This document shows positions 6,678 through 54,231 of a stretch of DNA of 64,000 nt, in pieces. The stretch lies in assembly GCA_964446735.1 (NCBI GenBank), contig CAYUQB010000001.1, positions 444,460-508,459 on the forward strand, given 5' to 3'. Every line of letters starts with the position of its first letter. The stretch's first letter is position 1. The notes under the pieces were generated by a model. The model was not told the DNA's origin, ran no database searches, and saw only the letters and a list, made by a program, of their open reading frames with translations. Both the position numbers and the translations under genes were made by a program. The stretch is from an uncultured Candidatus Saccharibacteria bacterium. Lineage in GTDB: Bacteria; Patescibacteriota; Minisyncoccia; Phycocordibacterales; Phycocordibacteraceae.

Positions 6678-8339
6678 TTAATTGCGCGGCAAATCGACAA
6701 CGCGCATCACTTCATCGAGAGAGGTTACCCCCGAAAGTGCCTTCAAGACGCCGTCTTGTGCCATCGTTAGATATCCTTGGCGGGTGACGTGCTTAGCGAT
6801 ATCACCTTCGCTCGGATTGTCGCGCAAGAACGTGCCCAACTCATCATCCATGAAAATGGCTTCGTAGAGGCCAATGCGTCCTTCATAGCCACTCTCATCA
6901 ACAGGCACCCACGTCATATCGAGTGATTGAGGGAGTAGCGTTTGATCGGTGAGTGATGAGAGTGCCTTTTCAGCAAAAGCGCGTTGCGCACCTTCAAGTG
7001 GAACCTGCTTTCTTTTATCGGGATGGAGTCTACGTACCAGGCGCTGTGCCATGGCGACTGATATAGCAGAACTAAATGATTTTGGATCAAGTCCTAAGTC
7101 AACGAGGCGGGGGAACGTACCTGCTGCGTTATTGGTGTGGAGCGTGGTGAATACGAAGTGTCCCGTAAGGGCAGCTTGAAGCGCGGTCTCGGCGACTTCC
7201 GCATCACGAATTTCACCGACCATAATCACGTCCGGATCCTGACGGAGTACTGATCGAAGTCCTGATGCAAATGTGTAGTCCTTGCCGTTTATTTGTGTCT
7301 GAACAATACCGGGGAGGTGGTACTCAATAGGGTCTTCGAGTGTGATGATTTTGATGTCAGGTGTGTGGATGCGTTTCAAAAAGGCATACAACGTGGTGGT
7401 CTTACCCGACCCAGTGGGGCCGGTCGTAAGGAGCATGCCGTTCGGGCGTTTGATTTCAGCTTCAAGTCGCGAAAGAAGCTTCGGGTGAATGCCCAAATCT
7501 TCAAAAGAAACTTGAATTGCTTCGGGATTGAGGATGCGCAGCACCACTGACTCGCCGTATCCTCCCGGAATAAGGGAGGTGCGGATTTCAATGTCACTTC
7601 CGGCAATTCCTACCGAGAATCGACCGTCTTGCGATCGATCCGTCACGTTCAGCTTAAGTCCGGAGAGTAATTTAATACGCGAGACCAGGCCATGATAGGT
7701 GTGTTGATCAAGGGTGTATGCGTCAGTAAGGATTCCGTCCAAGCGAAGACGCAAGCGCACATGTTCTTCCTCTGGCTCGATGTGTACATCAGACGCGCGC
7801 ATGGCAAACGCGGACGCAAGAATCTCTTCCAGTAGCTCCGAAGTTTGTGCACGAGTTCGCTTATTGAGAAGCTCATCCATATGCGCTGCGAAGCTCGGTA
7901 TGTCGGTCAGAGATTGCTTGAGATCGTTGAGGGCATCTGGCGAAAGCGTGAACACACCCGCCTCGCTTCCTGCTGCAAACGAAAGTTCCTCGTATTTCGC
8001 AAATGCTCGCGCCAGGCTTTTGTGCGAGACCATGAAGAGCTCAATGAGATACCCATCGCGTTCGAGTGATTGACGCAGCTCAATAAATTTTGGTGCTTCA
8101 GGAGAACGAACAGCGAGCGAGATTTTTTTACCCACCTTTGCAAACACAATCGCTTCTGCCTCGTGGGCGATAGGTTCAGGAATAATTCGAAGCGAATCTC
8201 CGTCAATGGGAGTAGTCGTGAGATCTACATACGTCGCTCCGTGCTTTTCGGAGAGCAGACGAGCGAGATCTTCTTCCTCGCGTTCACGAATAGCAGCAAG
8301 CTTCGCGTCCTCGGCGTCGGTATCAAAGGGGAGAGACAT
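6678..8339 (-). CDS. pilB: Type II/IV secretion system ATPase (GspE/PilB family), likely type IV pilus assembly ATPase
   Basis: Walker A LTTGPTGSGKTTTLYAFL; GEIRDAEVAETALQAALTGHFVFTTLHTNNAAGTFPRLVDLGL. Start placed at MSLPFDTDAED. Confidence 0.8.
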   Translation of the reverse strand: MSLPFDTDAEDAKLAAIREREEEDLARLLSEKHGATYVDLTTTPIDGDSLRIIPEPIAHEAEAIVFAKVGKKISLAVRSPEAPKFIELRQSLERDGYLIELFMVSHKSLARAFAKYEELSFAAGSEAGVFTLSPDALNDLKQSLTDIPSFAAHMDELLNKRTRAQTSELLEEILASAFAMRASDVHIEPEEEHVRLRLRLDGILTDAYTLDQHTYHGLVSRIKLLSGLKLNVTDRSQDGRFSVGIAGSDIEIRTSLIPGGYGESVVLRILNPEAIQVSFEDLGIHPKLLSRLEAEIKRPNGMLLTTGPTGSGKTTTLYAFLKRIHTPDIKIITLEDPIEYHLPGIVQTQINGKDYTFASGLRSVLRQDPDVIMVGEIRDAEVAETALQAALTGHFVFTTLHTNNAAGTFPRLVDLGLDPKSFSSAISVAMAQRLVRRLHPDKRKQVPLEGAQRAFAEKALSSLTDQTLLPQSLDMTWVPVDESGYEGRIGLYEAIFMDDELGTFLRDNPSEGDIAKHVTRQGYLTMAQDGVLKALSGVTSLDEVMRVVDLPRN

Positions 8340-39550: not shown

Positions 39551-40528
39551 ATGAACAATCGTCACCCCGAGTACCAATACCTGGACCTGATGCAAGAGAT
39601 CCTTGATACAGGGGAGAAGCAGGAGGATTCCATTGGGGTGAATACGTACAGCCTCTTTGGTCGACAGATTCGGTTCGACCTTTCGGACGGTCTTCCACTC
39701 CTTACGACCAAGAAGGTGTATTGGAACGGGGTTCTCCACGAGTTGTACTGGTTCATCTCAGGACAGACAAATATCAAGTACCTCGTCGATAACAACGTTC
39801 ATATTTGGGACGACTATCCGTACAAGATCTACTGCGAGAAAGTTGCTAAAGGTCTCTTGCCTGCGATGGAGAAGGCTGAATTCATTGCGGCAATTGCTCG
39901 GGACGATGAGTTCGCACGTCTCCATGGCGATCTTACTCATTGCTACGGCGAGGCATGGAGACGGTGGCCCGCACGGGACGGTCGTACGGTTGACCAGCTT
40001 GCGTGGGCAATAGCGGAGCTTGCTCGAGATCCGGATGCTCATAACACAGTTGTGAATTCGTGGAATCCCGAGTACCTATACGGCATGGCACAGCCGGAGG
40101 AGGCACTTCGGTTCCCGATCTGCCACAACATGTTCCAGTTCAATATTAAGAATGGGAAGGTGTGTCTCCAGCTCTACCAGCGCTCTGCGGACATCTTTCT
40201 TGGTGTTCCGTTCAACATTGCGAGCTATGCACTCCTGACCGCAATCGTTGCACGCGTGCTGGGCAGGGAACCGGGAGAATTCGTCCATACGTTCGGTGAT
40301 GTACATCTGTATGAGAACCACATCGAGCCTGCGCGAGAACAGCTCTCTCGTGAGCCGATGCCCTTTCCAACGGTTACGCTTTCCGGATTCGATTCTATTG
40401 ATGACTTCCGTCCCGAGCATGTTGAGCTCACGCACTATGAAGCGCACCCGCCTATTAAAGCCGAGCTTTCCGTCACCGGTGGAGTGAACGTCGCAGGGTA
40501 CGATTCGCGTACGAAGAAAGCGGTATAA
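39551..40528 (+). CDS. thyA: Thymidylate synthase (ThyA)
   Basis: PICHNMFQFNIKNGKVCLQLYQRSADIFLGVPFNIASYALLT, including the catalytic Cys. Confidence 0.9.
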   Translation: MNNRHPEYQYLDLMQEILDTGEKQEDSIGVNTYSLFGRQIRFDLSDGLPLLTTKKVYWNGVLHELYWFISGQTNIKYLVDNNVHIWDDYPYKIYCEKVAKGLLPAMEKAEFIAAIARDDEFARLHGDLTHCYGEAWRRWPARDGRTVDQLAWAIAELARDPDAHNTVVNSWNPEYLYGMAQPEEALRFPICHNMFQFNIKNGKVCLQLYQRSADIFLGVPFNIASYALLTAIVARVLGREPGEFVHTFGDVHLYENHIEPAREQLSREPMPFPTVTLSGFDSIDDFRPEHVELTHYEAHPPIKAELSVTGGVNVAGYDSRTKKAV

Positions 40529-40590: not shown

Positions 40591-41889
40591 ATGAACACGT
40601 ACCCACACATTCACGCAGAAGATCCTGAACTTAACGCCTTTATTGACGGAGAAGAGCGCCGTCAGCACGAGGGGCTCGAACTTATACCGAGCGAGAACTA
40701 TGTCTCGCAGGCAGTGCGTGAAGCGATGTCCTCGTGCCTTACCAATAAGTATTCCGAAGGGTATCCCGGTAAACGCTACTACGGCGGTCAGGAATTTACT
40801 GATCAAATAGAAACGCTTGCGATTGAGCGTGCCAAGACGCTTTTCCGGGCTGACCACGCAAACGTACAGCCCCTGGGGGGCGCAAATGCAAACATTGCAG
40901 CGTACTTTGCGTGGGTTGAGCCGGGTGACACTATCCTCGGAATGGATCTCGCGCATGGGGGACACCTCACGCATGGGTCTCCGGTCACGTATATGGCGCG
41001 GCTCTTTAACTTCGTCCGCTACGGTATGAAGGATCCTGATACCGGCGAGATCGACTATGACGAAATGCGAGAAACGGCAAAGCGGGTCCGTCCGAAGATT
41101 GTACTCGCTGGCTTTTCGGGGTATCCGCGTGAGCTCGACTGGGACCGCATTGCAGATATCGCTCACGAAGTTGATGCGGTCGCGATGGCCGACGTCGCAC
41201 ATATCGCAGGACTCATCGCGGGCGGTGTTGCGGAGAATCCCCTCGACCATGGCTTCCAGGTCATGTCGACCACGACACATAAGACGCTGCGTGGCCCACG
41301 TGGTGGGATGATTCTTTCTCGTGGAAAAGTATCAAGTCCCCTCAAGAAACCCGAGAAGACCATCGAGAATCTGCCGACGTTAATTGATCGAAGCGTCTTC
41401 CCAGGATTTCAGGGTGGCCCCCACATGCACCAGATCGCGGCGAAGGCCGTCATGCTTAACGAAGCAGCACGTCCGTCGTTTAAGGAGTACGCGACGCAGA
41501 TTGTGAAAAACGCGAAGGCGATGGCCGAAGTGTTCCGCGATGGCGGCATCCGCCTCATCACCGGCGGTACGGACAACCACCTCATTCTTGCCGACGTGTA
41601 TGGATCGCTCGGCATTACCGGTGGGGAAGCAGAGACCCTGCTTGATCGTGCTGGTATCACGCTCAATAAGAATTCCATTGCAAACGATACTCGGACACCG
41701 TTCGATCCTTCGGGCATACGGTTTGGAACACCGGCAATGACCACTCGTGGGTTTGTTGAGGAGGAATCGAGAGAAGTTGCCATGCTTATGCTCGAAGTGC
41801 TCCAGAAACGCGATGATGCGACCGTGGAGGCAGTGGGGAGACGTATTACTGAGCTCGCTGAGTCACATCCGATTCCCGACTCCTTCTAA
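40591..41889 (+). CDS. glyA: Serine hydroxymethyltransferase
   Basis: LELIPSENYVS; TTTHKTLRGPRGG (PLP-lysine motif). Confidence 0.9.
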   Translation: MNTYPHIHAEDPELNAFIDGEERRQHEGLELIPSENYVSQAVREAMSSCLTNKYSEGYPGKRYYGGQEFTDQIETLAIERAKTLFRADHANVQPLGGANANIAAYFAWVEPGDTILGMDLAHGGHLTHGSPVTYMARLFNFVRYGMKDPDTGEIDYDEMRETAKRVRPKIVLAGFSGYPRELDWDRIADIAHEVDAVAMADVAHIAGLIAGGVAENPLDHGFQVMSTTTHKTLRGPRGGMILSRGKVSSPLKKPEKTIENLPTLIDRSVFPGFQGGPHMHQIAAKAVMLNEAARPSFKEYATQIVKNAKAMAEVFRDGGIRLITGGTDNHLILADVYGSLGITGGEAETLLDRAGITLNKNSIANDTRTPFDPSGIRFGTPAMTTRGFVEEESREVAMLMLEVLQKRDDATVEAVGRRITELAESHPIPDSF

Positions 41890-42358: not shown

Positions 42359-44044
42359 ATGGAAGAGATCCTGAGGGCCGCAGTCAACGAAGCGCTTTCT
42401 GCGATGGGGGCACCCGAAGTCTCATTTGCCATCGAATGGCCAGCTGACACCGCCCATGGCGACTATGCGACGAATGCTGCACTCGCCGCAGGAAAGGAAC
42501 TTCAGAAGAATCCTCGCGAACTAGCTGAAGAGCTCGCGGTCATTCTTCGCACGTCACTTTCGGAGGAGGTCGAACGGATTGAGGTGGCGGGACCAGGATT
42601 CATCAACTTTACGCTCGCACGCACCGTCATCGCTGGGGTGGTGGGAGAAGCAGCGGTGCGTGGAAGTGAGTGGGGAAAGGGAAATGGAAACGAAGGAAAG
42701 CGAGTCATGCTCGAGTACTCAAATCCAAATCCTTTCAAAGAAATACACATTGGGCATCTGATGAGTAATGTTGTTGGTGAGGCGTTTTCACGCATTCTGG
42801 AGAACGCAGGCACGGTTGTCCTGCGCGATACGTTTGGTGGCGACGTAGGTCCCCATGTCGCGAAGGCGTTGTGGGCGCTCCGAAGAAACGGAGTGACCGA
42901 CATTGCACATGCTGCTGAAATTGGGAAAGCGTACGCGCAGGGATCGACTGCCTATGAGGAAAGCGAGGAAGCAAAGCGCGAAATTGATGATCTCAACACT
43001 CGTATCTACGAGGTTGTTGCGAAGCACGAAAGCCCTGACGCGCTCACTGAAGAAAATCGGGAACTTCTCACGCTCTGGCGAAAGGGGCGAGAGGTGTCTA
43101 TGGAGGAGTTCTTCCGGATCTTTAAACTCCTCGGCACGTCCTTTGATTATGTCTTTTTTGATAGTGATACAACGGCGCCTGGCATGGAAGCGGTTCGCCA
43201 GGGTCTTACTCAAGGAATCTTCGAGGAAAGCGATGGAGCTATCATCTATCGTGGCGAGAAGAAGGGTCTCCATACCTTGGTGTTCATTACCTCTCGAGGC
43301 ACTCCCACCTACGAAACTAAGGACATCGGACTTGCGCTCATCAAAGAAGAGCGAGCAGCAACTGATGAGAACATTATCGTCACCGCAGTGGAGCAGGTCG
43401 GCCATTTCCAGGTAGTGCTCGCGGCACTTGAGGAATTGATTCCATCCCTCGCTGCAAAGACACGCCACCTTCCGCATGGGCTTCTCCGCCTTCCAGAAGG
43501 AAAGATGTCATCGCGTAAGGGAAACGTTATTACTGGTGCTGACCTCATCGAAGAAATGACCGGTCGTGCAGGTGAGAAGAACGACGATCCGGTAATTGCC
43601 CAGCAGGTCGCGATTGGAGCCATCAAGTATATGATCCTTCGGCAAGCTCCCGGCGGAGACATTGTCTTTGATCCCGAACGGTCGCTCTCACTTGATGGAG
43701 ATTCTGGGCCGTACCTCCAATATGCACTTGTACGCGCACGTTCCGTATTGGCACAGGCACCCAAAGCGCCGGACGCACCGACGCCGTCTGGAGAACCATT
43801 CCTCATCGAACGACTTTTAGTTCGGTTCCCTGCAGTCACTGCACTCGCGGCGCGCGAAAATGCTCCACACAAAGTCACCCAGTATCTGACGCTTCTGGCA
43901 GGAGAATGGAATTCCTTTTATGCCAAGGAGCGCATCATCGGAGGAGAGCATGAGGGATACAAACTGGTGATTGCGAAGGCATTCGCAACAACCATGGAGA
44001 ACGGACTCCGTCTCCTTGCTATCCCCGCTCCGGAGAAGATGTAA
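42359..44044 (+). CDS. argS: Arginyl-tRNA synthetase
   Basis: ArgRS N-terminal domain (..HGDYATNAALAAGK..), HIGH motif (EIHIGHLMSNVVGEAF), KMSSRKG (KMSKS-like), and a C-terminal anticodon-binding domain. Confidence 0.85.
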   Translation: MEEILRAAVNEALSAMGAPEVSFAIEWPADTAHGDYATNAALAAGKELQKNPRELAEELAVILRTSLSEEVERIEVAGPGFINFTLARTVIAGVVGEAAVRGSEWGKGNGNEGKRVMLEYSNPNPFKEIHIGHLMSNVVGEAFSRILENAGTVVLRDTFGGDVGPHVAKALWALRRNGVTDIAHAAEIGKAYAQGSTAYEESEEAKREIDDLNTRIYEVVAKHESPDALTEENRELLTLWRKGREVSMEEFFRIFKLLGTSFDYVFFDSDTTAPGMEAVRQGLTQGIFEESDGAIIYRGEKKGLHTLVFITSRGTPTYETKDIGLALIKEERAATDENIIVTAVEQVGHFQVVLAALEELIPSLAAKTRHLPHGLLRLPEGKMSSRKGNVITGADLIEEMTGRAGEKNDDPVIAQQVAIGAIKYMILRQAPGGDIVFDPERSLSLDGDSGPYLQYALVRARSVLAQAPKAPDAPTPSGEPFLIERLLVRFPAVTALAARENAPHKVTQYLTLLAGEWNSFYAKERIIGGEHEGYKLVIAKAFATTMENGLRLLAIPAPEKM

Positions 44045-44125
44045 TATTGCATCATTCAGTTCTAGGCGCTAAGGTAGCGAGCATGCCGCATTCGTGTTGA
44101 AGCGGCTGTATGGGGAGGCTCTTTA

Positions 44126-44326
44126 ATGAGCGAACGTGTGATCTTCGAAACCGGCGCCGACGTCGCCAGGGCTCGCCGTGAACAGCAGGGCAAGGATCCC
44201 ATCCCGGGCCATGCGTACGAACAGCGGGATCTGGCCAACCAGCGGAGCATGCGGGGCCAAGCCAGGCTCGGCATCGACCGCTTCGGCGACCGGTACGGCT
44301 CCCTGTTCTCGGGCCGCATCACCTAG
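44126..44326 (+). CDS. Small hypothetical protein in a high-GC islet (66 aa)
   Basis: About 66% GC ORF (MSERVIFETGADVARARREQQGKDPIPGH...) with its own terminator, inserted between argS and ileS. Confidence 0.35.
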   Translation: MSERVIFETGADVARARREQQGKDPIPGHAYEQRDLANQRSMRGQARLGIDRFGDRYGSLFSGRIT

Positions 44327-44354
44327 CTCATCATCAACAACTCAATCAGGACGT

Positions 44355-44388
44355 CCCGGCGCGTGCGCGCGCCGGGCGTTTCCTTTTT
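44355..44388 (+). terminator. GC-rich terminator hairpin cccggcgcg-tgcg-cgcgccggg plus cgtttccttttt
   Basis: Stem-loop plus T-tract, seen in the sequence. Confidence 0.5.
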
Positions 44389-44416
44389 AGGGCCTGAACG
44401 CTAGGATGAGGAAGAC

Positions 44417-47400
44417 ATGGCCGATATTGATACCGACGCGGTGGAGAAAAGCGAGGCAGTGCTTCGCGAAGAGGAAGTACTCCGATTCTGGAAGGAGAAT
44501 CGTATTTTTGAGAAGTCACTCGAACGAGGGAGTGATAAGCATCCGTTCATTTTTTATGAAGGCCCTCCGACCGCAAACGGTCGACCCGGAGTTCACCATA
44601 TGGAGTCTCGGTCGTTTAAAGATGCTATTCCTCGATACAAAACGATGCGGGGGTTCAATGTCCCTCGTCGAGGTGGCTGGGATACTCACGGACTTCCCGT
44701 TGAGCTCGAAGTCGAGAAGCAACTTGGCTTTAGCGGAAAACAGGACATAGAAACGTACGGCATCGCCGAGTTTAATAAAAAGTGTCGAGAGAGTGTATTT
44801 TCATACATCGACGAATGGAAAAAGTTTTCCGATCGCATGGGCTATTGGGTCGATCAGGACGAAGCGTACTTTACCTTCGATGCTTCGTACATGGAGTCGC
44901 TCTGGAGCATTTTCAAGAAAGTGAGCGACGATGGGCGTCTCTATAAAGACTATCGAGTGGTGCCGTGGTGCGTATCGTGTGGAACCGCACTGTCTTCTCA
45001 CGAACTCGCGCAGGGATACGAAGAAGTGAAAGACCTCTCGCTTACGGTGAAGTTCGAACTCGTAAACGAGCCTGGTACGTTCGTACTTGCATGGACCACG
45101 ACTCCGTGGACGCTTCCGGGAAATGTTGCACTTGCCGTGGGTGAGAAGATTGCGTACGGCCTCTATCAGAAGGATGATCAGAAGGTCATCGTTGCGGATG
45201 CACTTGCTCCAAAGGTGCTTGGAGAGGGATGGGTGCGAACTGAAGATCGGCCGACAGCGGGACTCATCGGTCAGGAGTATCGACCGCTCTACCCATTTGC
45301 CCGAGAGGTAGCTCCTGAAAGTGAGCAACCCAAATTCGATGCTGCGTATCGAATATATACCGCAGACTTTGTGAATACTGAAGACGGTACCGGCATTGTG
45401 CATACGGCTGTTATGTACGGTCAGGACGACTTCGAGCTTGGTTCCAAGGTCGGCCTACCCAAAGTTCATCTCGTCGCCCCTGATGGGAGGTTTGTGAGCG
45501 GCACCGGCTTTTTGGAAGGTGCATCGGTCATCGATTCCGAGACGAACGTTGCGGTACTGAAAGACCTACAGGAGAAGGGACTTTTCTTTGCGAAAGAGAA
45601 TTACGCGCACGAGTATCCACACTGCTGGCGAAGTAAGAATCGACTGGTCTACTATGCGCGTGATTCCTGGTATATCCGCATGACGGAGCTCCGTGACTAC
45701 CTTATTGACGAGAACAAGACGGTGAACTGGGAGCCAAGCTATATTCGCGATGGCCGCATGGGTGAGTGGCTCGCGAATGTGCGTGATTGGGCAATCTCAC
45801 GAGAACGATACTGGGGCACGCCGCTCCCGGTATGGCAGAGTGCAGACGGGAGCGAACAGGTGGTTGTCGGTTCTATCGAAGAATTACGGTCTCGTAGGAA
45901 AAGAAGCGGGAATACCTATTTCCTCATGCGTCATGCCGAAGCTGAGCAGAATGTAAAAAGAATCGTTAACAGTGGTGATTTGAATGCGTATGGAATCACC
46001 GACCTCGGCAAGCAGCAGGCGCTTGAGTCGGCACAGCAATTCAAACAAGAAAACGTCTCGATTATCTATGCATCGCCGTTTCGTCGTACACGTGAGACAG
46101 CCGAAATAATTGCCGATGAGCTGGGCATTCCACGTTCTGAAATAGTTTACGATGTTCGGCTTCGAGAGCTCGACTTCGGCGATCTCAATGAATGTCCGTA
46201 CGATGATTTCACCGCATACCGGAAGGAGCACCTGCATGCCTACTCAGATTCATTACCAAGTGGCGAGAGCTGGCTTGATGCACGTCGACGCTTCGGTCAC
46301 TTCATTTACGAAATGGAGCAGATGCATCAAGGGAAGAATATTCTAATGGTTACGCACGGTGTTGCGTTCGAATCCCTGCTTATGATTACAGAAGGAAAGA
46401 ATCATAGGGAGTCCCAGGAGTTTCTCCAATCATATGCGCCGCCCCAGAAGGGTTCATGGATGAAACTTGATTTCGTTCCGCTTCCACACAACGATGACTA
46501 CGAACTCGACCTCCATCGTCCCTATATAGATGACGTGGTACTTCTCTCCGATTCGGGAACTGAACTACGACGGACACCGGAAGTTATGGATGTCTGGTTC
46601 GATTCAGGTGCGATGCCATTCGCACAGGATCACTATCCTTTCGAGAATAAGGAGTGGATTGATACGAAAGGCTACCCAGCTGATTTCATATCGGAAGCAA
46701 TCGACCAGACTCGAGGATGGTTCTACACGCTTCTTGCGGTAGGAGTACTGATGGGGAAGGGTGCGGCGTATAAAAATGTTATCTGTCTTGGGCATCTCTT
46801 GGACGAGGCTGGTCAAAAGATGAGTAAGTCAAAGGGGAACATCATTGAGCCCATGAAGGCCATAGACCGGTACGGGGCCGACACCCTTCGGTTCTGGATG
46901 TACTACGTCAATCAGCCAGGCGATAGCAAGAATTTTGATGAGAAAACGGTCAAGGAAGCAGCACGTGTGCTGTCCTGGTTCGAACATAGTGTGAAGTTCT
47001 ATCAACTCTTCGGTGGCGCAGAAGGAAAGGCCGAAGAGCAGATCATCGATACGTGGATGCGTACTCGAGTTTCCGAGACCATCGGTGAGGTCACCACTAC
47101 GCTCGACGCCTATGATCTTTACACTGCAACACGGCGAATCAGCACACTCATTGAAGATCTCTCGCAGTGGTATGTCAGACGCGTACGTGATCGTGTGCGT
47201 GATGGTGACGTTGCCGCCAGTACAGCGTTACGTGACACCCTCCAAGCCATTGCTGTTCTTCTTGCTCCGTTTGCCCCTTTTATTGCTGAATGGGGCTACC
47301 AAGCAGTGCGTGATGCCGAAGATCCCGAAAGCGTACATCTTGCCGATTGGTATGAGGCGGGCACCGTTGACACTACGCTTATCGAACACATGGCGACGAC

Positions 47401-47830
47401 ACGGATGCTCGCGTCAGAAGCACTCCGCGCTCGTCAGGGTGCTGGCGTGAAGGTCCGCCAGCCGCTTTCAACACTTTCTATACCAGGAAAGCTTCCTCAG
47501 GAATTTGCGCTCCTTCTGGCAGAAGAAGTGAATGTAAAAGAAGTCATCATGGAGCAAGAGGCACTTTCGCTTGCAACCGAACTCACTCCTGACCTTATCC
47601 GCGAAGGTGATGCGCGTGAGTTTCTGCGTGCACTTGCAGATGCACGAAAAGAAACCGGACTATCTCCACACGACCGCATTGCACTGACGGTCTCTCCAGA
47701 AGGTGAGGGCGTACTTGCTGGCTTAAGTATTCCGGCGGTGACGTCCATTGCGTACGGCTATGCGGATGATCATGCGGTAGAGCTTTCGTTTGGAAAGCTT
47801 GGGTTCTCCTTCCTGCTCAATGCGTCATAA
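44417..47830 (+). CDS. ileS: Isoleucyl-tRNA synthetase (type 2-like) carrying an inserted histidine-phosphatase (phosphoglycerate-mutase-like) domain of about 180 aa
   Basis: PPTANGRPGVHH (HIGH-type), CP1 editing domain (WTTTPWTLPGN), KMSKSKGN, and the C-terminal anticodon-binding region. Between ...VVVGSIEELRSRRK and YAPPQKGSWMKLDF...DLHRPYIDD there is a complete RHG-type phosphatase: FLMRHAEAEQN...SPFRRTRETAEI...LMVTHGVAFESL. Confidence 0.85.
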   Translation: MADIDTDAVEKSEAVLREEEVLRFWKENRIFEKSLERGSDKHPFIFYEGPPTANGRPGVHHMESRSFKDAIPRYKTMRGFNVPRRGGWDTHGLPVELEVEKQLGFSGKQDIETYGIAEFNKKCRESVFSYIDEWKKFSDRMGYWVDQDEAYFTFDASYMESLWSIFKKVSDDGRLYKDYRVVPWCVSCGTALSSHELAQGYEEVKDLSLTVKFELVNEPGTFVLAWTTTPWTLPGNVALAVGEKIAYGLYQKDDQKVIVADALAPKVLGEGWVRTEDRPTAGLIGQEYRPLYPFAREVAPESEQPKFDAAYRIYTADFVNTEDGTGIVHTAVMYGQDDFELGSKVGLPKVHLVAPDGRFVSGTGFLEGASVIDSETNVAVLKDLQEKGLFFAKENYAHEYPHCWRSKNRLVYYARDSWYIRMTELRDYLIDENKTVNWEPSYIRDGRMGEWLANVRDWAISRERYWGTPLPVWQSADGSEQVVVGSIEELRSRRKRSGNTYFLMRHAEAEQNVKRIVNSGDLNAYGITDLGKQQALESAQQFKQENVSIIYASPFRRTRETAEIIADELGIPRSEIVYDVRLRELDFGDLNECPYDDFTAYRKEHLHAYSDSLPSGESWLDARRRFGHFIYEMEQMHQGKNILMVTHGVAFESLLMITEGKNHRESQEFLQSYAPPQKGSWMKLDFVPLPHNDDYELDLHRPYIDDVVLLSDSGTELRRTPEVMDVWFDSGAMPFAQDHYPFENKEWIDTKGYPADFISEAIDQTRGWFYTLLAVGVLMGKGAAYKNVICLGHLLDEAGQKMSKSKGNIIEPMKAIDRYGADTLRFWMYYVNQPGDSKNFDEKTVKEAARVLSWFEHSVKFYQLFGGAEGKAEEQIIDTWMRTRVSETIGEVTTTLDAYDLYTATRRISTLIEDLSQWYVRRVRDRVRDGDVAASTALRDTLQAIAVLLAPFAPFIAEWGYQAVRDAEDPESVHLADWYEAGTVDTTLIEHMATTRMLASEALRARQGAGVKVRQPLSTLSIPGKLPQEFALLLAEEVNVKEVIMEQEALSLATELTPDLIREGDAREFLRALADARKETGLSPHDRIALTVSPEGEGVLAGLSIPAVTSIAYGYADDHAVELSFGKLGFSFLLNAS

Positions 47831-48380
47831 GTACACGACCGGAGGGGTAGTTCTTGCACGCACTCCGCTTCGGGAAGCAGGCATGCTCATAACACTCCTT
47901 ACCCCCGATCTGGGGCTTGTGCGGGCACGTGCTGAAGGGGTGCGACGTTCGGGTGCGAAGCTTGCCCACGCGCTTCAGACGTTGTGTCAATCGCGGTTGA
48001 TGCTGGTACGCGGCAGAGAAGGGTGGCGCATTACGGGAGCGGCACTCGATACTAACCGCTTTCTGGAGCTCCCTCCTTCCGAACGTGCTCGGGTCGCACG
48101 CGTCGCGCAGCTTCTCATTCGTCTCGTGCATGATGAGTCGAATGATCCAGCACTCCACGACACGTTCACCCAATTCGTTACGATGCTCCCCACGCTCTCA
48201 AAAGGGGAAGGGGAGATAGCCGAACTCCTCGTGGTCCTACGGCTTCTGGCAACGCTTGGGCTGGTCCGTGAGGCACTCCCGCCTCCTGGGTACGATGCAT
48301 CGGCTCTTCGCTATGGGGAGGAACATCGCAGTGAGCTTATTTCTCGCATCAATCGCGGGATCACGGCCTCAGGACTCTAA
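47820..48380 (+). CDS. recO: DNA repair protein RecO
   Basis: N-terminal OB fold (TTGGVVLARTPLREAGMLITLLTPDLGLVRARAEGVRRSGAKL) and a helical C-terminal domain. Confidence 0.7.
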   Translation: MRHKYTTGGVVLARTPLREAGMLITLLTPDLGLVRARAEGVRRSGAKLAHALQTLCQSRLMLVRGREGWRITGAALDTNRFLELPPSERARVARVAQLLIRLVHDESNDPALHDTFTQFVTMLPTLSKGEGEIAELLVVLRLLATLGLVREALPPPGYDASALRYGEEHRSELISRINRGITASGL

Positions 48381-48383
48381 CGA

Positions 48384-50282
48384 GTGCGCTATACTTGCGC
48401 CATGGCGGACGAGGAATTGAATTCCCTCGAGAAAGTACAGCGCCGCTTGTACGGCTCAGAATCACCACCGGTCTTCGATACCCCGGTGCTTAAGGAGCGT
48501 GCTGCTGAGCGTACCGGTGGCTGGGATAAGCTGAAGGCGGGTTCCGAAGGACTGCGCAAAGAGGCGGAGCACATCTCCGGACCGGCTCGGTTTTTTATTG
48601 TTGCCTTTGCATTCTTCTTGGTAACTGGAGGTGGAGCCGTGATCTACCTCATCTATGGTGGGCGGATCGTGTCGACCAATAACGTGAACATTGCGGTGCA
48701 GGGTCCGACGTCGATAGCGAGTGGCGACACCGTTTCGCTCCTCGTTACTATCGAGAACCGGAATCCCGTGGCCATGAAAAAGCCTCGGATCACCCTTGAT
48801 TTCCCCGAGGGGACAAAATCAGCAGATGATACTTCGCTGCCGCTTTCCCTCTATGCAAGTGAGCTTGAAGATATCCCTTCGGGTGGGAAGGCTGAGGTAA
48901 GTGTGCGTGCGGCCGTGTATGGGAGTGAAGGTCAGAACGTCACGGTGCCGCTTAAGGTCGAGTACCGTACCGATAGTAGTAATTCGGTGTTTGTGAAGCA
49001 GAAGCAATACTCGTTCATCATCACCTCGTCACCCATCAGCCTCAATATCTCCTCGCTTACGCAGGCGTCTGCTGGGCAAACGGTCACGATTGACGTGGCA
49101 GTGAAGAGTAATGCGAACGGTCCGGTCAATGATGTTGCGGTAGTCGCCCAGTATCCTTTTGGGTTCACACTCACCCGCAGCGATCCACAGCCAACCACCG
49201 GTTCGGTATTCACTTTTGGTACGCTCGGGCCGGGTGAAGAACGTCGTATCAGTATTACGGGGACTGTCTCGGGAGAAAACAACGACGAGCGCATCTTCAA
49301 ATTCACCGCGGGTACGCTTGCCTCTAGTGGAGGGACTTCGCTCGCGACCTCGTTTACGAGCAAGGAGACTCTCATACGTCTCACCAAGCCATTCCTTGCA
49401 ACTACACTCTCAGTTAATCGCGATACCTCTACAAGCCCGGTGATTGAGGCGGGCGTACCAGTTGCGGTGACTGTTTCGTGGGTTAACACACTTCCAAAGC
49501 CCGTGACGAACGCGCGGGTATCAGTTCAGATCGTTGGCGACGCACTTGATCCTGCAAGCGTTACGGGCGCCGGCTTCTATCGTTCGAGTGATAACACCGT
49601 GTTATTTGATGCTAGTACGAATCCCGGCCTCGCTGCACTACAGCCAGGCGATACAGGGCAGGGGACGTTCACCTTTGCTACGAAGCGCTCGGCACTCTCA
49701 ATGAGTAATCCAAGCGTTGTACTCAAGGTGTCAGTCGCGGGGCAACGGCTTTCGGAAAGCAACGTTCCTGAAACTATAACGGCGACACTTACGCGGACGG
49801 TAAAAGTCGGAACAAATCTTGCTCTCACTTCACGTGCGGTGCGCACCACAGGGCCGTTCACAAACGTGGGTCCGTGGCCTCCCGAAGCAAATAAGGAGAG
49901 TACGTACACGGTAATGTATACGCTCAACAATTCTGGCAACACAGTCGCAGGAACACAGATAACTGCCGCGCTGCCTTCCTATGTACGCTTCACTGGTGCC
50001 ACGAACCCGAACGATGGATCCGTAAAATATGATGACGCTTCTCGTACGGTGACTTGGAGTGCAGGTGATGTCACCGCTGGGGCGAGTAAAACGGCAGCGT
50101 TCCAGATTGCGATCACACCGAGTGTTTCCCAGCAGAATACGGCACCGGTACTCCTGTATGCTCAGCAGGTGACCGGCGTCGATCGGTTCACCCAGCGTAC
50201 GATTACTGGAAGCGTACCGGAGCTCACCACAGAAGTGAGTAAGGACCCGGCCTACACCGCTGGAGTTGGTAAGGTGAAATAA
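48384..50282 (+). CDS. Membrane-anchored cell-surface protein with about four DUF11/CARDB-like beta-sandwich repeats
   Basis: TM helix (FFIVAFAFFLVTGGGAVIYLIYG). Repeated segments GDTVSLLVTIENRNPVAM / GQTVTIDVAVKSNANGPVNDV / GVPVAVTVSWVNTLPKPVTNA / STYTVMYTLNNSGNTVAGT. Confidence 0.5.
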   Translation: MRYTCAMADEELNSLEKVQRRLYGSESPPVFDTPVLKERAAERTGGWDKLKAGSEGLRKEAEHISGPARFFIVAFAFFLVTGGGAVIYLIYGGRIVSTNNVNIAVQGPTSIASGDTVSLLVTIENRNPVAMKKPRITLDFPEGTKSADDTSLPLSLYASELEDIPSGGKAEVSVRAAVYGSEGQNVTVPLKVEYRTDSSNSVFVKQKQYSFIITSSPISLNISSLTQASAGQTVTIDVAVKSNANGPVNDVAVVAQYPFGFTLTRSDPQPTTGSVFTFGTLGPGEERRISITGTVSGENNDERIFKFTAGTLASSGGTSLATSFTSKETLIRLTKPFLATTLSVNRDTSTSPVIEAGVPVAVTVSWVNTLPKPVTNARVSVQIVGDALDPASVTGAGFYRSSDNTVLFDASTNPGLAALQPGDTGQGTFTFATKRSALSMSNPSVVLKVSVAGQRLSESNVPETITATLTRTVKVGTNLALTSRAVRTTGPFTNVGPWPPEANKESTYTVMYTLNNSGNTVAGTQITAALPSYVRFTGATNPNDGSVKYDDASRTVTWSAGDVTAGASKTAAFQIAITPSVSQQNTAPVLLYAQQVTGVDRFTQRTITGSVPELTTEVSKDPAYTAGVGKVK

Positions 50283-50301
50283 TTCGCGTAGTATCGACCC
50301 T

Positions 50302-51690
50302 ATGGAAACACCCAGTCTCGATACCATAGTCTCTTTGGCTAAGCGCCGAGGGTTCGTATTCCCTGGCTCCGAGATATACGGCGGTTTTGCTGGTACCTAC
50401 GACTGGGGACCGCTTGGTGTTCCGCTTCGCGAGAACGTCATGAATCTCTGGAACAGGGCTATGAGAAGTCACGACGATATAGCACCACTTGATTCAAGTA
50501 TCGTTACCGCAGGTGCAGTGTGGGAGGCTAGTGGCCACGTACATAATTTCTCAGATCCGCTCGTTGCCTGTCTGGCCTGCGGGACTAAGCATCGGGCAGA
50601 TCATCTACTTGAGGCAATTGGCGTGCAAGCAGATGAAAAAATGACTGAGAAGGAGTTGAATGCGCTTTTTGATGCTAATCGCGACAAGCTTGTATGTACG
50701 AATTGTGGAAAAAAGGACTTTGATGTCGTGACGAATCGGTACCTCTTGGCGACAACCAATCTCGGAATGATTTCTGACGACGATCCGCAGGTCTACCTGC
50801 GAGGGGAGACAGCACAGGGAATTTATATCAACTATAAGAATGTGCTCGACTCAGGATTCTACAAAGTCCCATTCGGTATCGCACAAGTTGGTAAAGCGTT
50901 TCGCAACGAGATTAATCCACGCCAATTTCTTTTCCGTAAACGGGAGTTCGAGCAGATGGAGATGCAGTACTTTGTGCATCCCAACCAAGCGGTGCACGTA
51001 TTCGAGGAGTGGCGTAACGAGCGCATGGCATATTATGCCCAACTCGGCATTCGGAAAGAAAAACTTCGTTGGAAGCAGCATGAGAATCTCGTTTTCTACG
51101 CCAAGGATGCTTGGGATATTGAATACGAGTTTCCCTTCGGATGGGGTGAGCTCGAAGGTCTCCACTATCGAGGAGAATATGATCTCTCGCAACACCAGAA
51201 GTTCTCTGGAGTGGACCTCACATTTTTCGACGAAGAGACGAAGGAACGCTTCATACCACATGTGGTGGAAGCATCTGTTGGTCTCGACCGCTCGATATTG
51301 ATGGTACTCGCCGATGCATATCGCGAGGACGAAATGAATGGTGAAACTCGGGCATACCTGGCCTTTGATCCGAAAGTCGCACCGATAAAAGCAATGGTTT
51401 CTCCGCTTCTGAAGAACAAGCCTGAGCTCGTCGAGAAAGCGAAAGAAGTCCGTAACGAACTTCGAAAGGCACATCCTGCTATCGCATGGGACGACAATGG
51501 AAATATTGGTAAGCGGTACCGTAGACAGGACGAAATAGGAACCCCGTTCTGCATCACCATTGATTTCGACACACTCGGCGAGACGGCGGATTTAAAAGAT
51601 ACGGTCACGTTGCGTCATCGCGACACCGGGGAGCAGGAACGGCTTACGGTTGCTGAAGTAGCAGAGCGTATCCGGGCCGCCGTAGGCTAA
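50302..51690 (+). CDS. glyQS: Glycyl-tRNA synthetase (dimeric class II, GlyQS type)
   Basis: RRGFVFPGSEIYGGFAGTYDWGPLG; class II motifs; C-terminal anticodon-binding domain. Confidence 0.9.
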   Translation: METPSLDTIVSLAKRRGFVFPGSEIYGGFAGTYDWGPLGVPLRENVMNLWNRAMRSHDDIAPLDSSIVTAGAVWEASGHVHNFSDPLVACLACGTKHRADHLLEAIGVQADEKMTEKELNALFDANRDKLVCTNCGKKDFDVVTNRYLLATTNLGMISDDDPQVYLRGETAQGIYINYKNVLDSGFYKVPFGIAQVGKAFRNEINPRQFLFRKREFEQMEMQYFVHPNQAVHVFEEWRNERMAYYAQLGIRKEKLRWKQHENLVFYAKDAWDIEYEFPFGWGELEGLHYRGEYDLSQHQKFSGVDLTFFDEETKERFIPHVVEASVGLDRSILMVLADAYREDEMNGETRAYLAFDPKVAPIKAMVSPLLKNKPELVEKAKEVRNELRKAHPAIAWDDNGNIGKRYRRQDEIGTPFCITIDFDTLGETADLKDTVTLRHRDTGEQERLTVAEVAERIRAAVG

Positions 51691-51739
51691 GGGATTCAGC
51701 CAATCCTGCCACGCACACGTTTCGTGCTAGGATGCGCGT

Positions 51740-52792
51740 ATGGACAAGCAAATACAGGTCTCGATCACTCCGGGGACCATCATCACCGCCCTTATTATCG
51801 GGGCAGTGGCGTTTGCGGTGTGGACTCTGCGTGACCTCGCGCTTTTGGTACTGACGGCCATCGTAATTGCATCCGCCATTGAGCCGGGCGTCGTCTTCTT
51901 CACCCGTCGCAAATTCCACCGGGTGTTTGCGGTGCTGCTCATGTATCTTCTTGTATTCGGATCGCTTTTCGCTTCCGTCTATTTCTTTATTCCGCCCATG
52001 CTTGATGATGCGAGCAACTTTCTCTCGGTCATGTCGCAGTATTTGGGAACACTTCCGATACCGGGTGCGCCGGATCCTAATGCTGCCGTACAAGCCGCGT
52101 CGAGCTCACAGCTTTCAGGAATGCTCGACACACTGTTTACAATTGAGCGAGCGTTTGTCGATCCATCAGCTGGAGCATTTAAGATCGTCTCGACGTTCTT
52201 CGGGGGACTCTTTTCGCTTCTTCTTGTCGTTATTCTTTCGTTCTACTTCGCTGTTCAAGATACCGGCATTGAGGAATTCTTAAAACTCATTACGCCCCAT
52301 AAGCACGAGCAGTATGTGGTCGGACTGTGGCGCCGCGCGCAGCGCAAGATCGGTCTCTGGATGCAGGGTCAGCTACTCTCCTCGCTTATGAGCGGCGTCA
52401 TTGTGTATCTGGGCTTACTCATTCTGGGTATCCCCTATGCGCTACTCCTTGCGGTATTCACCGCAATTGCGGGGTTAGTACCGATCTTCGGTTCCTTCGT
52501 TGCTGCGGTTCCAGCAATCATCATTGCGTTTACGACAGGCGGCGTCACGCTCGCGCTCATCGTGGCGGGCCTCTTCCTTATCGTGAATCAGTTTGAAGCA
52601 CATCTTATACATCCGTTGGTGGTGAATAAGGTGGTAGGTATTCCGCCGCTTCTGGTTATTCTCGCCCTCATTGTCGGCGGCCAACTAGCAGGCTTCTTGG
52701 GAGTCGTGCTGGCAATCCCCGTTGCAGCAGCATTGCGCGAATTCCTCGCTGACCTTGATCGTGGCAAGCGTGCTCGTGCACAATCGGCGTAA
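51740..52792 (+). CDS. AI-2E family transporter (UPF0118 / PerM-like)
   Basis: 8-TM topology with the conserved GLWMQGQLLSSLMSGV..GIPYALLLAVFTAIAGLVPIFGS pattern. Confidence 0.75.
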   Translation: MDKQIQVSITPGTIITALIIGAVAFAVWTLRDLALLVLTAIVIASAIEPGVVFFTRRKFHRVFAVLLMYLLVFGSLFASVYFFIPPMLDDASNFLSVMSQYLGTLPIPGAPDPNAAVQAASSSQLSGMLDTLFTIERAFVDPSAGAFKIVSTFFGGLFSLLLVVILSFYFAVQDTGIEEFLKLITPHKHEQYVVGLWRRAQRKIGLWMQGQLLSSLMSGVIVYLGLLILGIPYALLLAVFTAIAGLVPIFGSFVAAVPAIIIAFTTGGVTLALIVAGLFLIVNQFEAHLIHPLVVNKVVGIPPLLVILALIVGGQLAGFLGVVLAIPVAAALREFLADLDRGKRARAQSA

Positions 52793-54231
52793 TGGCTCGG
52801 TACATAACCCCCACGATTGCGTATGTGAACGCCGATCCCCATATCGGCTATGCTCTCGAACTTATTCAGAGCGATACGCTTGCTCGCCTGTGGCGACTTG
52901 AAGGTGAAGACGTGTTCTTCAATACGGGAGCAGATGAGCACGGACAGAAGATATTTGAAGCTGCTCAGAAGAACGGTCAGGATGTGCAGGCATATGTCGA
53001 TCACTACGCCGACGAGCTCCGCAAGCTTAAGGATGCGCTTGATTTATCTCCAGACAATTTCATCCGAACAACCAGTCCCGAGCATAAAGCGGCAGCGCAG
53101 GAGATGTGGCGTATCTGTGACGCGGCAGGCGACATTTATAAGAAGTCGTACACCGGACTGTATTGCGTCGGGTGTGAACTCTACAAGAACGAGAAGGACC
53201 TGAACGAAGACGGTTTTTGTCTCATCCACCCGAGCCTAAAGCCTCAGACGCTCTCGGAAGAGAATTACTTCTTCCGGTTCTCAAAGTATCAAGACGCATT
53301 GCTTAGCTACCTCGACCGTCCCGATGTACTTATTCCTGACTGGAGAAGGGAAGAAGCACGAAATTTTATCGAAGGTGGTCTTGAGGACTTCAGCATTTCG
53401 CGGGAGAAAGCACGTCTGTCGTGGGGGGTTCCAGTTCCCGGCGACGACTCTCAAGTCATGTACGTATGGTTCGACGCGCTCACTGATTATCTTTCGACAC
53501 TTGGCTGGCCAGAGGATGCGGAAGGCAAGTTCGAGAAGTTCTGGCAGAACGGTCGTACAGTACAGGTGGCTGGTAAAGACCAGGTCCGGTTCCAGTCCCT
53601 AATGTGGCAGGCAATGCTCATGTCGGCAGGTATACAAAACACCGACCAGATTTTCTATCACGGCTTCATTACGTCAGGAGGTCAGCGTATGAGCAAGTCG
53701 CTTGGTAACGTCATCAGTCCCTACGAGCTGGTTGAGAAATACGGCACCGATGCGACTCGGTATCTACTTTTGCGCCATGTGCATGCGACTGATGATTCGG
53801 ATGTCACCTGGGAGAAGCTCGATGAGTGGTATACCGCAAATCTCGTGAATGGGTTGGGGAATCTGGTGGCCCGGGTAATGAAGCTGGCAGAAGAACATCT
53901 ATCGCAGCCGGTTGAACTCGCCAAAGAAGATACCGCTCTGGAACAAGGATTCGTCGGTTTGCTTGACCGGTTTGCATTCAACGAAGCCATGGACCTGGTG
54001 TGGGAGCACGTTGGGAAGGGCGATGAATTCATGACGAGTCGAGAGCCTTATAAGAAAATCAAGAATCCTGAAACCGTAGAAGAGGCCCGGTCGGATATCG
54101 AAAAGCTCGTAACACATCTTGCAAAAATTGCTGTGCATTTAACGCCGATTATGCCGAGAACCAGCGAAGCGATTATCGAATCAATACGCACGAACACGAA
54201 ACCGGATAATCTTTTTCCTCGCCTTCCATAA
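52792..54231 (+). CDS. metG: Methionyl-tRNA synthetase (core enzyme without the C-terminal tRNA-binding domain)
   Basis: YITPTIAYVNADPHIGYALE (HIGH); KMSKSLGNVI; 479 aa. Confidence 0.9.
   Translation: MARYITPTIAYVNADPHIGYALELIQSDTLARLWRLEGEDVFFNTGADEHGQKIFEAAQKNGQDVQAYVDHYADELRKLKDALDLSPDNFIRTTSPEHKAAAQEMWRICDAAGDIYKKSYTGLYCVGCELYKNEKDLNEDGFCLIHPSLKPQTLSEENYFFRFSKYQDALLSYLDRPDVLIPDWRREEARNFIEGGLEDFSISREKARLSWGVPVPGDDSQVMYVWFDALTDYLSTLGWPEDAEGKFEKFWQNGRTVQVAGKDQVRFQSLMWQAMLMSAGIQNTDQIFYHGFITSGGQRMSKSLGNVISPYELVEKYGTDATRYLLLRHVHATDDSDVTWEKLDEWYTANLVNGLGNLVARVMKLAEEHLSQPVELAKEDTALEQGFVGLLDRFAFNEAMDLVWEHVGKGDEFMTSREPYKKIKNPETVEEARSDIEKLVTHLAKIAVHLTPIMPRTSEAIIESIRTNTKPDNLFPRLP

Follow-up and report, generated by a model that had tools for sequence, protein, structure and literature searches.

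What is a phosphatase doing inside an aminoacyl-tRNA synthetase (aaRS)? The question is raised by the ileS gene at positions 44417..47830 (forward strand) of a 64,000-nucleotide window of contig CAYUQB010000001.1, from an uncultured, Parcubacteria-type bacterium of the Patescibacteriota (candidate phyla radiation). This uninterrupted open reading frame (ORF) of 1137 codons plus stop encodes an isoleucyl-tRNA synthetase (IleRS) of type 2 (IleRS2) with a second enzyme domain nested within it. The insert appears to be a complete, catalytically competent branch-1 histidine phosphatase, apparently still active. It is probably an autonomous phosphomonoesterase of small molecules that, in a minimal genome, is housed in the essential IleRS and expressed along with it; the last step of this reading, autonomy, is the less certain one.

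How is the protein built? In the Pfam annotation of the 1137 residues, the match to tRNA-synt_1 (PF00133) comes in two stretches with His_Phos_1 (PF00300) between them, and Anticodon_1 and DUF5915 follow downstream. The amino-terminal IleRS part (residues 1-493; 44417..45895, forward strand, as are all features of the gene) comprises the first half of the HUP/Rossmann fold; connective peptide 1 (CP1), the editing domain; and the first half of CP2, to ...VVVGSIEELRS. The carboxyl-terminal part (residues 691-1137; 46487..47827) resumes with the second half of CP2 (HNDDYELDLHRPYID...) and continues through the second HUP half, the KMSKS loop, and the anticodon-binding and type-2 carboxyl-terminal domains. 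Between them lies a segment of 197 residues (494-690; 45896..46486), made up of a basic linker, RKRSGN; the full histidine phosphatase domain; and the carboxyl-terminal junction, ...KLDFVPLP.

The PF00300 match itself covers residues 502-671 (45920..46429; E=1.4e-32, 113.4 bits, cutoff 21.7) and spans model positions 2-171 of 194. The excised segment alone matches the same family with E=6.9e-34. With this significant match, and with the IleRS scaffold intact on both sides, the two central claims of the original prediction hold: a complete histidine phosphatase inside IleRS, and a genuine domain insertion. Its coordinates for the insert, 45899-46435, were near the mark at the start and about 50 nt short at the end. 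Aligned to the Priestia megaterium IleRS2 (PmIleRS2, 8c8w), residues 15-493 correspond to chain positions 11-477 and residues 691-1052 to positions 480-856. Against this reference, some 197 residues take the place of two, and not of about 15 as first supposed. The insertion site is CP2, the connective peptide that links the editing domain to the second catalytic HUP half (in the two-CP nomenclature of the IleRS2 structural papers).

Does the host remain a working synthetase? By its sequence, the window protein is probably the organism's IleRS2. It scores 804.9 bits, in two stretches, against the ileS equivalog model TIGR00392 of NCBIfam (cutoff 621.4), and no second ileS was found within the 64-kb window. 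In an alignment of the 120 closest homologues, the CP1 editing motifs (T228-T229-P230-W231-T232, H329, and D338) are invariant, and little or no variation is seen in the class I signature, the KMSKS loop (residues 801-805; 46817..46831), and the DQTRGWFY block. The CP1 region aligns to the isolated IleRS editing-domain structures 1WK8 and 1UE0. The carboxyl terminus has the type-2 organization, Anticodon_1 followed by DUF5915, and the best matches are to IleRS2, those to IleRS1 being much weaker. A full-length AlphaFold model, built on the 120-sequence alignment, has a predicted local distance difference test score (pLDDT) of 90.2 and a predicted template-modelling score (pTM) of 0.82, with blocks of the insert at 91-98. 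Its IleRS body superposes on 8c8v (target TM 0.83) and on 1ile (TM 0.91); among the structural matches of the full model, no solved structure covers the insert. Outside the insert, the domain order and fold are those of the IleRS2 proteins of P. megaterium (8C8U, 8C8V, and 8C8W) and Thermus thermophilus (1ILE). The differences are the second enzyme of about 197 residues, lodged between PmIleRS2 residues 477 and 480, and the loss of zinc-knuckle cysteines in the subclade of the window. The intact type-2 host that had been proposed is thus borne out by equivalog score, by alignment and superposition to IleRS2 structures, and by the motifs that it keeps.

The class I signature had been described as a HIGH-type motif. 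It is present, in the swapped form G58-V-H-H61 (44588..44599) and not as HxGH. In this GxHH form, known from some IleRS2, the first and third positions of HxGH are exchanged; a GVHH-type signature is documented as functional in IleRS2, and the swap is tied to mupirocin hyper-resistance (Brkic et al. 2023, PMC10485003). By the motif definition the window protein qualifies as a GxHH-type IleRS2, and all 120 closest homologues share the signature. A coupling between GxHH and the insert was considered and rejected: loci L010 and L011 combine HxGH with the insert, and many loci of other phyla have GxHH without it.

Is the inserted enzyme active? Modelled alone, it is predicted to adopt the alpha/beta fold of its family (pLDDT 94.7), and the window copy has the entire catalytic set: R505, H506, R557, E584, and H647. 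Conservation of these positions was followed in the 120 closest homologues and in 159 domain copies from 50%-identity cluster representatives. R505 and H506, the latter the predicted phospho-accepting nucleophile, form the RH[G/A] motif (45929..45934) and are present in 120/120 homologues and 157/159 copies, the other two being truncated. The original prediction called this motif RHG-type, which is right for the family (RHG in 110 of the 120 relatives); the window protein itself has RHA. N512, the phosphate-pocket asparagine of RHGExxxN (45950..45952), is kept in 118/120 homologues and 141/159 copies; R557, the second phosphate-binding arginine, in the SPxxR motif (46085..46087), in 120/120 and 158/159; and R625, the conserved arginine after the GES motif (46289..46291), in 119/120 and 155/159. 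E584, the predicted general acid/base (46166..46168), is found in 118/120 homologues, and the 159 copies have 152 Glu and 6 Asp. The second catalytic histidine, H647, and G648 belong to the THG motif (46355..46360); they are conserved in 120/120 and 119/120 homologues, respectively, and in 157/159 copies. Taken together, the five residues of the R-H-R-E-H core are all retained in 148 of the 159 copies. The 11 exceptions are six E-to-D changes, three truncations or alignment gaps, and two clear substitutions (R557W and E584A).

This near-universal conservation favours an active enzyme over a degenerate insert, a choice left open by the original prediction, and suggests that selection acts on catalysis. 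The opposite view is that catalysis has been lost, and that the domain is kept as a structural brace for the folding or stability of CP2 or of the whole IleRS, perhaps in place of the zinc knuckle. Some features fit: the insert evolves much faster than its host (mean identity to the window protein 42%, against 72-79% for the HUP catalytic core, across the 120 relatives; about 44% among the relatives themselves), and its length is tightly held, at 192-200 residues. A brace would not need the nucleophile, both arginines, the acid, and the second histidine that 148 of the 159 copies retain, nor would the extra copies at other sites (described below) need to keep theirs. The phosphate pocket has been kept whole over deep divergence, along with the nucleophile and the general acid; a solely structural role is therefore disfavoured, and we consider it improbable.

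The zinc knuckle itself bears on the same point. In the subclade of the window, all four CP2 cysteines of the knuckle (CxxC...CxxC in PmIleRS2) are replaced, by QSADGS... at about 45830-45860 (residues 472-481) and by LLSDSG... at about 46540-46575 (residues 708-719), as the brace reading would have it. Many other insert-bearing IleRSs of the Paceibacteria, for example L004-L010, retain CxxC...CxxC, so that replacement of the knuckle by the insertion was rejected as a general rule. This distribution implies that the phosphatase domain entered the tip of an intact zinc-knuckle hairpin, and that the subclade of the window would have lost its cysteines secondarily, after the insertion.

How widespread is the fusion? 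The original prediction had advised a check of whether the insert is lineage-wide, and it is: PF00300 accompanies the IleRS domains in all 120 best homologues (100% to 60% identity; 1108-1189 residues). The set is drawn from NCBI, JGI, ENA, and Logan assemblies, and its named members are metagenome-assembled genomes (MAGs) of Parcubacteria, Paceibacterota, or Patescibacteria. When 1.84 billion representatives at 50% identity were searched exhaustively with residues 440-760, which span the insert and both junctions, 261 matched at E<=1e-30; the insert is in at least 150 clusters, and nearly all of the 150 listed align over one contiguous stretch, with identities down to 34%. In a comparison of the 80 best IleRS2 loci from one genome per GTDB species, the insert occupies the same site in 11/11 loci judged to be Patescibacteria (eight labelled so, as Paceibacteria, Yanofskybacteria, Spechtbacterales, and others; three with generic or conflicting labels) and in 0/69 loci of other phyla (Chloroflexota, Bacillota, Gammaproteobacteria, Ignavibacteria, Poseidoniales archaea, and others). 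When relatives of the distant locus L002 were gathered in turn, 119 of 120 had PF00300.

The label of L002 had hinted at an extension to the Saccharibacteria, which is unsupported: the names borne by the 120 relatives nearest to it are Nomurabacteria, Pacebacteria, Minisyncoccia, or Paceibacterota. Because of these names, the supported distribution is the Parcubacteria/Paceibacteria radiation, throughout which the architecture appears to have been inherited; because of that inheritance, the protein may be regarded as a two-enzyme polypeptide. An apparent split of ileS at the insert junction in L011, a Yanofskybacteria MAG, was rejected as a data artefact, a masked run of N at 7262-7274 inside the phosphatase-coding part. 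The same breadth disposes of an assembly chimera in the window, a possibility noted at the outset: the ORF is uninterrupted, and the same architecture recurs in hundreds of independent assemblies from the four sources.

Which phosphatase is it? By sequence, the nearest solved protein is PhoE (1EBB/1H2E; E=7e-13), and the closest structural neighbours are all small-molecule phosphatases. Comparable enzymes of the dPGM-like branch, of broad specificity or acting on small molecules, are PhoE; the phosphoserine phosphatase iPSP1 (4IJ5); glucosyl-3-phosphoglycerate phosphatase (6S2Q); the riboflavin-pathway HFP (9MMH); and CobC (6E4B), with sequence E-values from 7e-13 to 2e-9. These enzymes share the fold, the size (about 190-210 residues), and the catalytic constellation of the insert; they are free-standing, whereas the insert is nested in another enzyme, and identity is only 20-27%. 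Scored against NCBIfam phosphatase models, the insert reaches 76.2 bits for GpmB (cutoff 261), 74.2 for CobC (162.9), 67.2 for PspA (350), and 32.1 for SixA (74.5). No substrate specificity can be transferred, because the insert lies under every equivalog cutoff and identity is so low. A side match is to the phage family phrog_12933, of unknown function (E=5.7e-23, a 197-residue profile); free-standing His_Phos proteins of the same size also occur in phages, and this match probably reflects generic family similarity. PADLOC gave no match that would relate the insert to a defence system.

The best NCBIfam match of all is a mutase model, NF038349, for the short archaeal form of cofactor-dependent phosphoglycerate mutase (dPGM), with 88.5 bits. 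Might the insert, then, be a hidden phosphoglycerate mutase (PGM) that supplies the dPGM step of lower glycolysis? The short Schizosaccharomyces pombe dPGM 1FZT is among the PDB matches (E=2.5e-9). Jaffe et al. 2020 (PMC7304191) note that several shallow Parcubacteria clades lack PGM, or perhaps have one that has diverged beyond detection. All sampled IleRSs of the radiation have the insert, whereas a lack of PGM is reported for some shallow clades only. The archaeal dPGM score is also far below its equivalog cutoff of 225, and the insert is below cutoff for TIGR01258 (30.9, cutoff 81.7) and PRK01295 (58.8, cutoff 316) too.

The residues were compared as well. In dPGM, the second phosphate or the carboxylate of the substrate is bound by ER[HY]YG, the lysine of GLNK, an Arg-Arg pair, and the asparagine of HGN, positions that were checked against 1FZT. 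In the insert, ER[HY]YG is ELDFG; the GLNK lysine is tyrosine; WRR is absent; and HGN is HGV, the residue after H647-G648 being valine and not the dPGM-type asparagine. The family consensus of the 120 homologues likewise has none of the dPGM-specific residues. Because these residues are missing, the insert is assigned to the phosphatase-type members of the family and not to the mutases, and a hidden dPGM is very improbable.

Does the enzyme depend on its place in the host? Phosphatase copies in relatives from the 50%-identity search were placed with Pfam and custom segment hidden Markov models. Some relatives have more than the one copy in CP2, here called site A. Tandem pairs occupy site A in P0183, P0184, P0223, and P0236, and P0242 has four phosphatase copies. 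Site B is a loop in the latter half of the HUP fold (about window residues 746-751), with copies in P0269, P0257, and P0267. Site C, which follows the HUP/stem-contact region and precedes the anticodon-binding domain (about residues 867-874), holds copies in P0203, P0227, P0198, P0204, and P0257. In two of these proteins, P0203 and P0269, site A is empty. All copies in multi-copy proteins, and all relocated ones, keep the catalytic residues. The duplications are old, because copies within one protein are only 26-35% identical and because the first and second tandem members are orthologous between proteins.

Such multiplicity of sites and copy numbers might also be expected of a selfish in-frame element, intein-like or otherwise mobile, and the insert does track its host weakly: distances in the insert and in the IleRS core correlate with a Pearson coefficient of 0.33 and a Spearman coefficient of 0.05, and insert identity is 0.47 within clades and 0.44 between them. 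GC content is slightly lower over the insert than upstream (0.48 versus 0.52-0.55), as it might be in a mobile element or a chimera, though the low-GC stretch runs on to about 46950. At shallow depth, 65 of 120 sequences have the nearest neighbour of their insert among the five that are closest to them in IleRS core identity. We read the weak agreement at depth as saturation, with the insert near its identity floor; it appears to give no evidence of exchange between lineages. The junctions show no repeats or target-site duplications beyond chance 11-13-mers, and the extra copies, at 26-35% identity, are ancient and not recent transpositions.

Nor is the segment an intein, as the original prediction had concluded. 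Pfam finds no Hint, intein, LAGLIDADG, or endonuclease family in a segment that has the phosphatase fold, and the amino-terminal junction, RSRRKRSGN, offers no Cys, Ser, or Thr nucleophile. One detail of the earlier argument fails: an H-N dipeptide, said to be missing from the carboxyl-terminal junction, is there, at residues 691-692 (PLP-HN-DD). It is not an intein signature, because Asp or Glu follows it instead of Cys, Ser, or Thr, and because H691 aligns with a histidine native to IleRS2. Chimera and intein are effectively refuted, and a selfish element of any kind is scarcely credible.

The reading that remains preferred is an autonomous phosphomonoesterase. By homology to the standard two-step mechanism of the family, H506 would attack a phosphomonoester held by R505, N512, R557, R625, and H647; E584 would protonate the leaving group and then activate water to hydrolyse the phospho-His506 intermediate. 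The substrate would be a small phosphomonoester, perhaps a metabolite or a nucleotide, a less certain part of the proposal. The tie to IleRS would consist in physical hosting and co-expression, and not in a precise geometry with the aminoacylation or editing sites. An autonomous module is suggested because the copies that relatives have in tandem, or at two other IleRS positions, are still catalytically intact; a small-molecule enzyme, because the close structural neighbours are all small-molecule phosphatases and because the charge of the domain is not conserved. Net charge across the domain copies ranges from -14 to +19 (window insert, -8), and a conserved basic RNA-binding surface was not found by this measure.

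Several observations weigh against this reading. Site A holds 138 of the 146 copies with an assignable site; its junction residues are fairly conserved (N499, 80%; P690, 81%); and the full-length protein is modelled with confidence as one body (pTM as given above). These points would also fit a fixed, coupled orientation. The insert is apparently confined to IleRS: the ArgRS, MetRS, and class II aaRS of the same window are ordinary, no extra domain having been found in them. The linker that precedes the phosphatase is basic and conserved (RKRSGN; mean charge +2.2 over residues 488-500). The failure to reach any curated NCBIfam equivalog cutoff tested counts here as well. Finally, one relative of L002, P0386 (1335 residues), has an additional carboxyl-terminal HD phosphohydrolase domain (PF01966; about residues 1133-1335; 25.4 bits, cutoff 22). 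The HD module could be a genuine fusion, or could reflect a lost stop codon that joins a downstream gene; if the fusion is real, HD domain and histidine phosphatase would resemble an RNA-end-healing pair.

Apart from the equivalog scores, these observations point toward a translation-coupled third active site, with the phosphatase acting on something that IleRS handles. Candidate substrates would be a tRNA-Ile 3' end that is 2'- or 3'-phosphorylated or carries an opened cyclic phosphate, healed before charging; AMP, ADP, species derived from diadenosine tetraphosphate (Ap4A), or pyrophosphate; or a phosphorylated IleRS inhibitor. The restriction of the domain to IleRS among the aaRSs of the window would fit, as would its position in CP2, adjoining the catalytic core; the basic linker; the predicted single body; the end-healing pair that P0386 would form; and the antibiotic-resistance-linked GxHH of the clade. 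Intact copies at three sites and in tandem arrays are hard to fit to a geometry-dependent hand-off, and the domain is often acidic, its nearest structural relatives acting on small molecules. P0386 is a single cluster, open to the stop-codon explanation, and GxHH is independent of the insert. Moreover, we know of no histidine phosphatase that dephosphorylates RNA 3' ends. On balance, a translation-coupled role is unlikely, as is the related possibility that IleRS is an obligatory scaffold for expressing a diversifying phosphatase family (one to four copies, three sites) in minimal cells; the hosted, autonomous phosphomonoesterase is preferred.

Is there a precedent for such an arrangement? Histidine phosphatases joined to a second module in one polypeptide are known, and all of the following are sequence or structural neighbours of the insert: PFK-2/FBPase-2 (1BIF, 5HR5); RNase H/acid phosphatase (NF005567); the Nudix-His_Phos proteins MutT1/Rv2985 (3FJY, 9CXX); and TFIIIC tau55 (2YN0). 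PFK-2/FBPase-2, RNase H/acid phosphatase, MutT1, and tau55 are end-to-end fusions. In the window protein, by contrast, the phosphatase sits inside the catalytic domain of its partner, and the partner is an aminoacyl-tRNA synthetase. From the side of IleRS, nested domains are familiar: the CP1 editing domain within a connective peptide, and INS within ARD2 of IleRS2, are cases of whole domains tolerated in surface loops. These serve aminoacylation fidelity and tRNA binding, whereas a phosphomonoesterase has no known role in that reaction. Another enzyme domain joined to IleRS is indicated by the NCBIfam model NF040702, [quoted passage not shown], judging from the model name and a partial match.

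Neither part of the protein is new: the host is a regular IleRS2, and the insert a regular branch-1 histidine phosphatase. The sequences are public, and precomputed Pfam annotation already lists PF00300 in them. A full-text search of about 8 million papers and preprints, with many subscription-journal papers outside its reach, gave no description of an IleRS-histidine phosphatase fusion, in keeping with the original prediction that it is undescribed. The IleRS2 literature that was text-searched, including a domain census of 96,219 IleRS sequences, makes no mention of a phosphatase insert. As far as found, then, no aaRS has been described that has a catalytic phosphatase within its catalytic body, and the novelty lies in recognition and function, not in sequence.

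The genes around ileS include three other aaRS genes on the same strand, the four lying within 12 kb (42359-54231): ArgRS (42359-44044); IleRS; a class II aaRS whose anticodon domain is of the HGTP type (50302-51690); and a short MetRS (52792-54231). ThyA (39551-40528) and SHMT (40591-41889) are encoded just upstream of argS, and the last 41 nt of ileS are shared with a recO-like ORF (47790-48380, TTG start). The argS-ileS spacer is 372 bp long and unusually rich in GC (0.64 versus about 0.53). It contains a 66-codon ORF (44126-44326, forward strand) preceded by GGGGAGG, and then a strong terminator-like hairpin (44355-44376) of nine G-C pairs followed by a T-run. Pfam gives no match for the ORF, and no Rfam family scores above threshold in the spacer; the element may be either a small protein gene or a structured RNA. 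Upstream of ileS, Rfam shows neither a riboswitch nor a T-box, apart from a sub-threshold chance match. Nine tRNA genes lie between 13567 and 32490 (Lys-TTT, Arg-CCG, Arg-GCG, Ser-TGA, Arg-TCT, Leu-CAG, Val-TAC, Leu-GAG, and His-GTG); tRNA-Ile is not among these nine genes of the window.

The synthetases are among the most studied of enzymes, and an accessory domain in one of them usually marks an additional function, for example editing, tRNA binding, or signalling. In this case an essential synthetase seems to have kept a second enzyme, catalytically intact as judged from its residues, across a very large uncultivated group; in some lineages that enzyme has been duplicated or moved. Because an intact second enzyme is kept across so large a group, strong selection for an as yet unnamed function is likely. 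The protein also offers a clean natural example of a zinc-knuckle hairpin that has received a whole domain at its tip, and is likely a lineage marker for the radiation. Should the phosphatase act on tRNA ends, nucleotides, or an inhibitor, it would represent a new kind of aaRS-associated activity; if a role in translation is true, a whole bacterial radiation would possess an aaRS substrate-conditioning activity unknown elsewhere. If, as preferred here, it is an autonomous metabolic phosphatase, a metabolic step of the Parcubacteria would be hidden in a gene annotated only as isoleucyl-tRNA synthetase, and would be missing from metabolic reconstructions.

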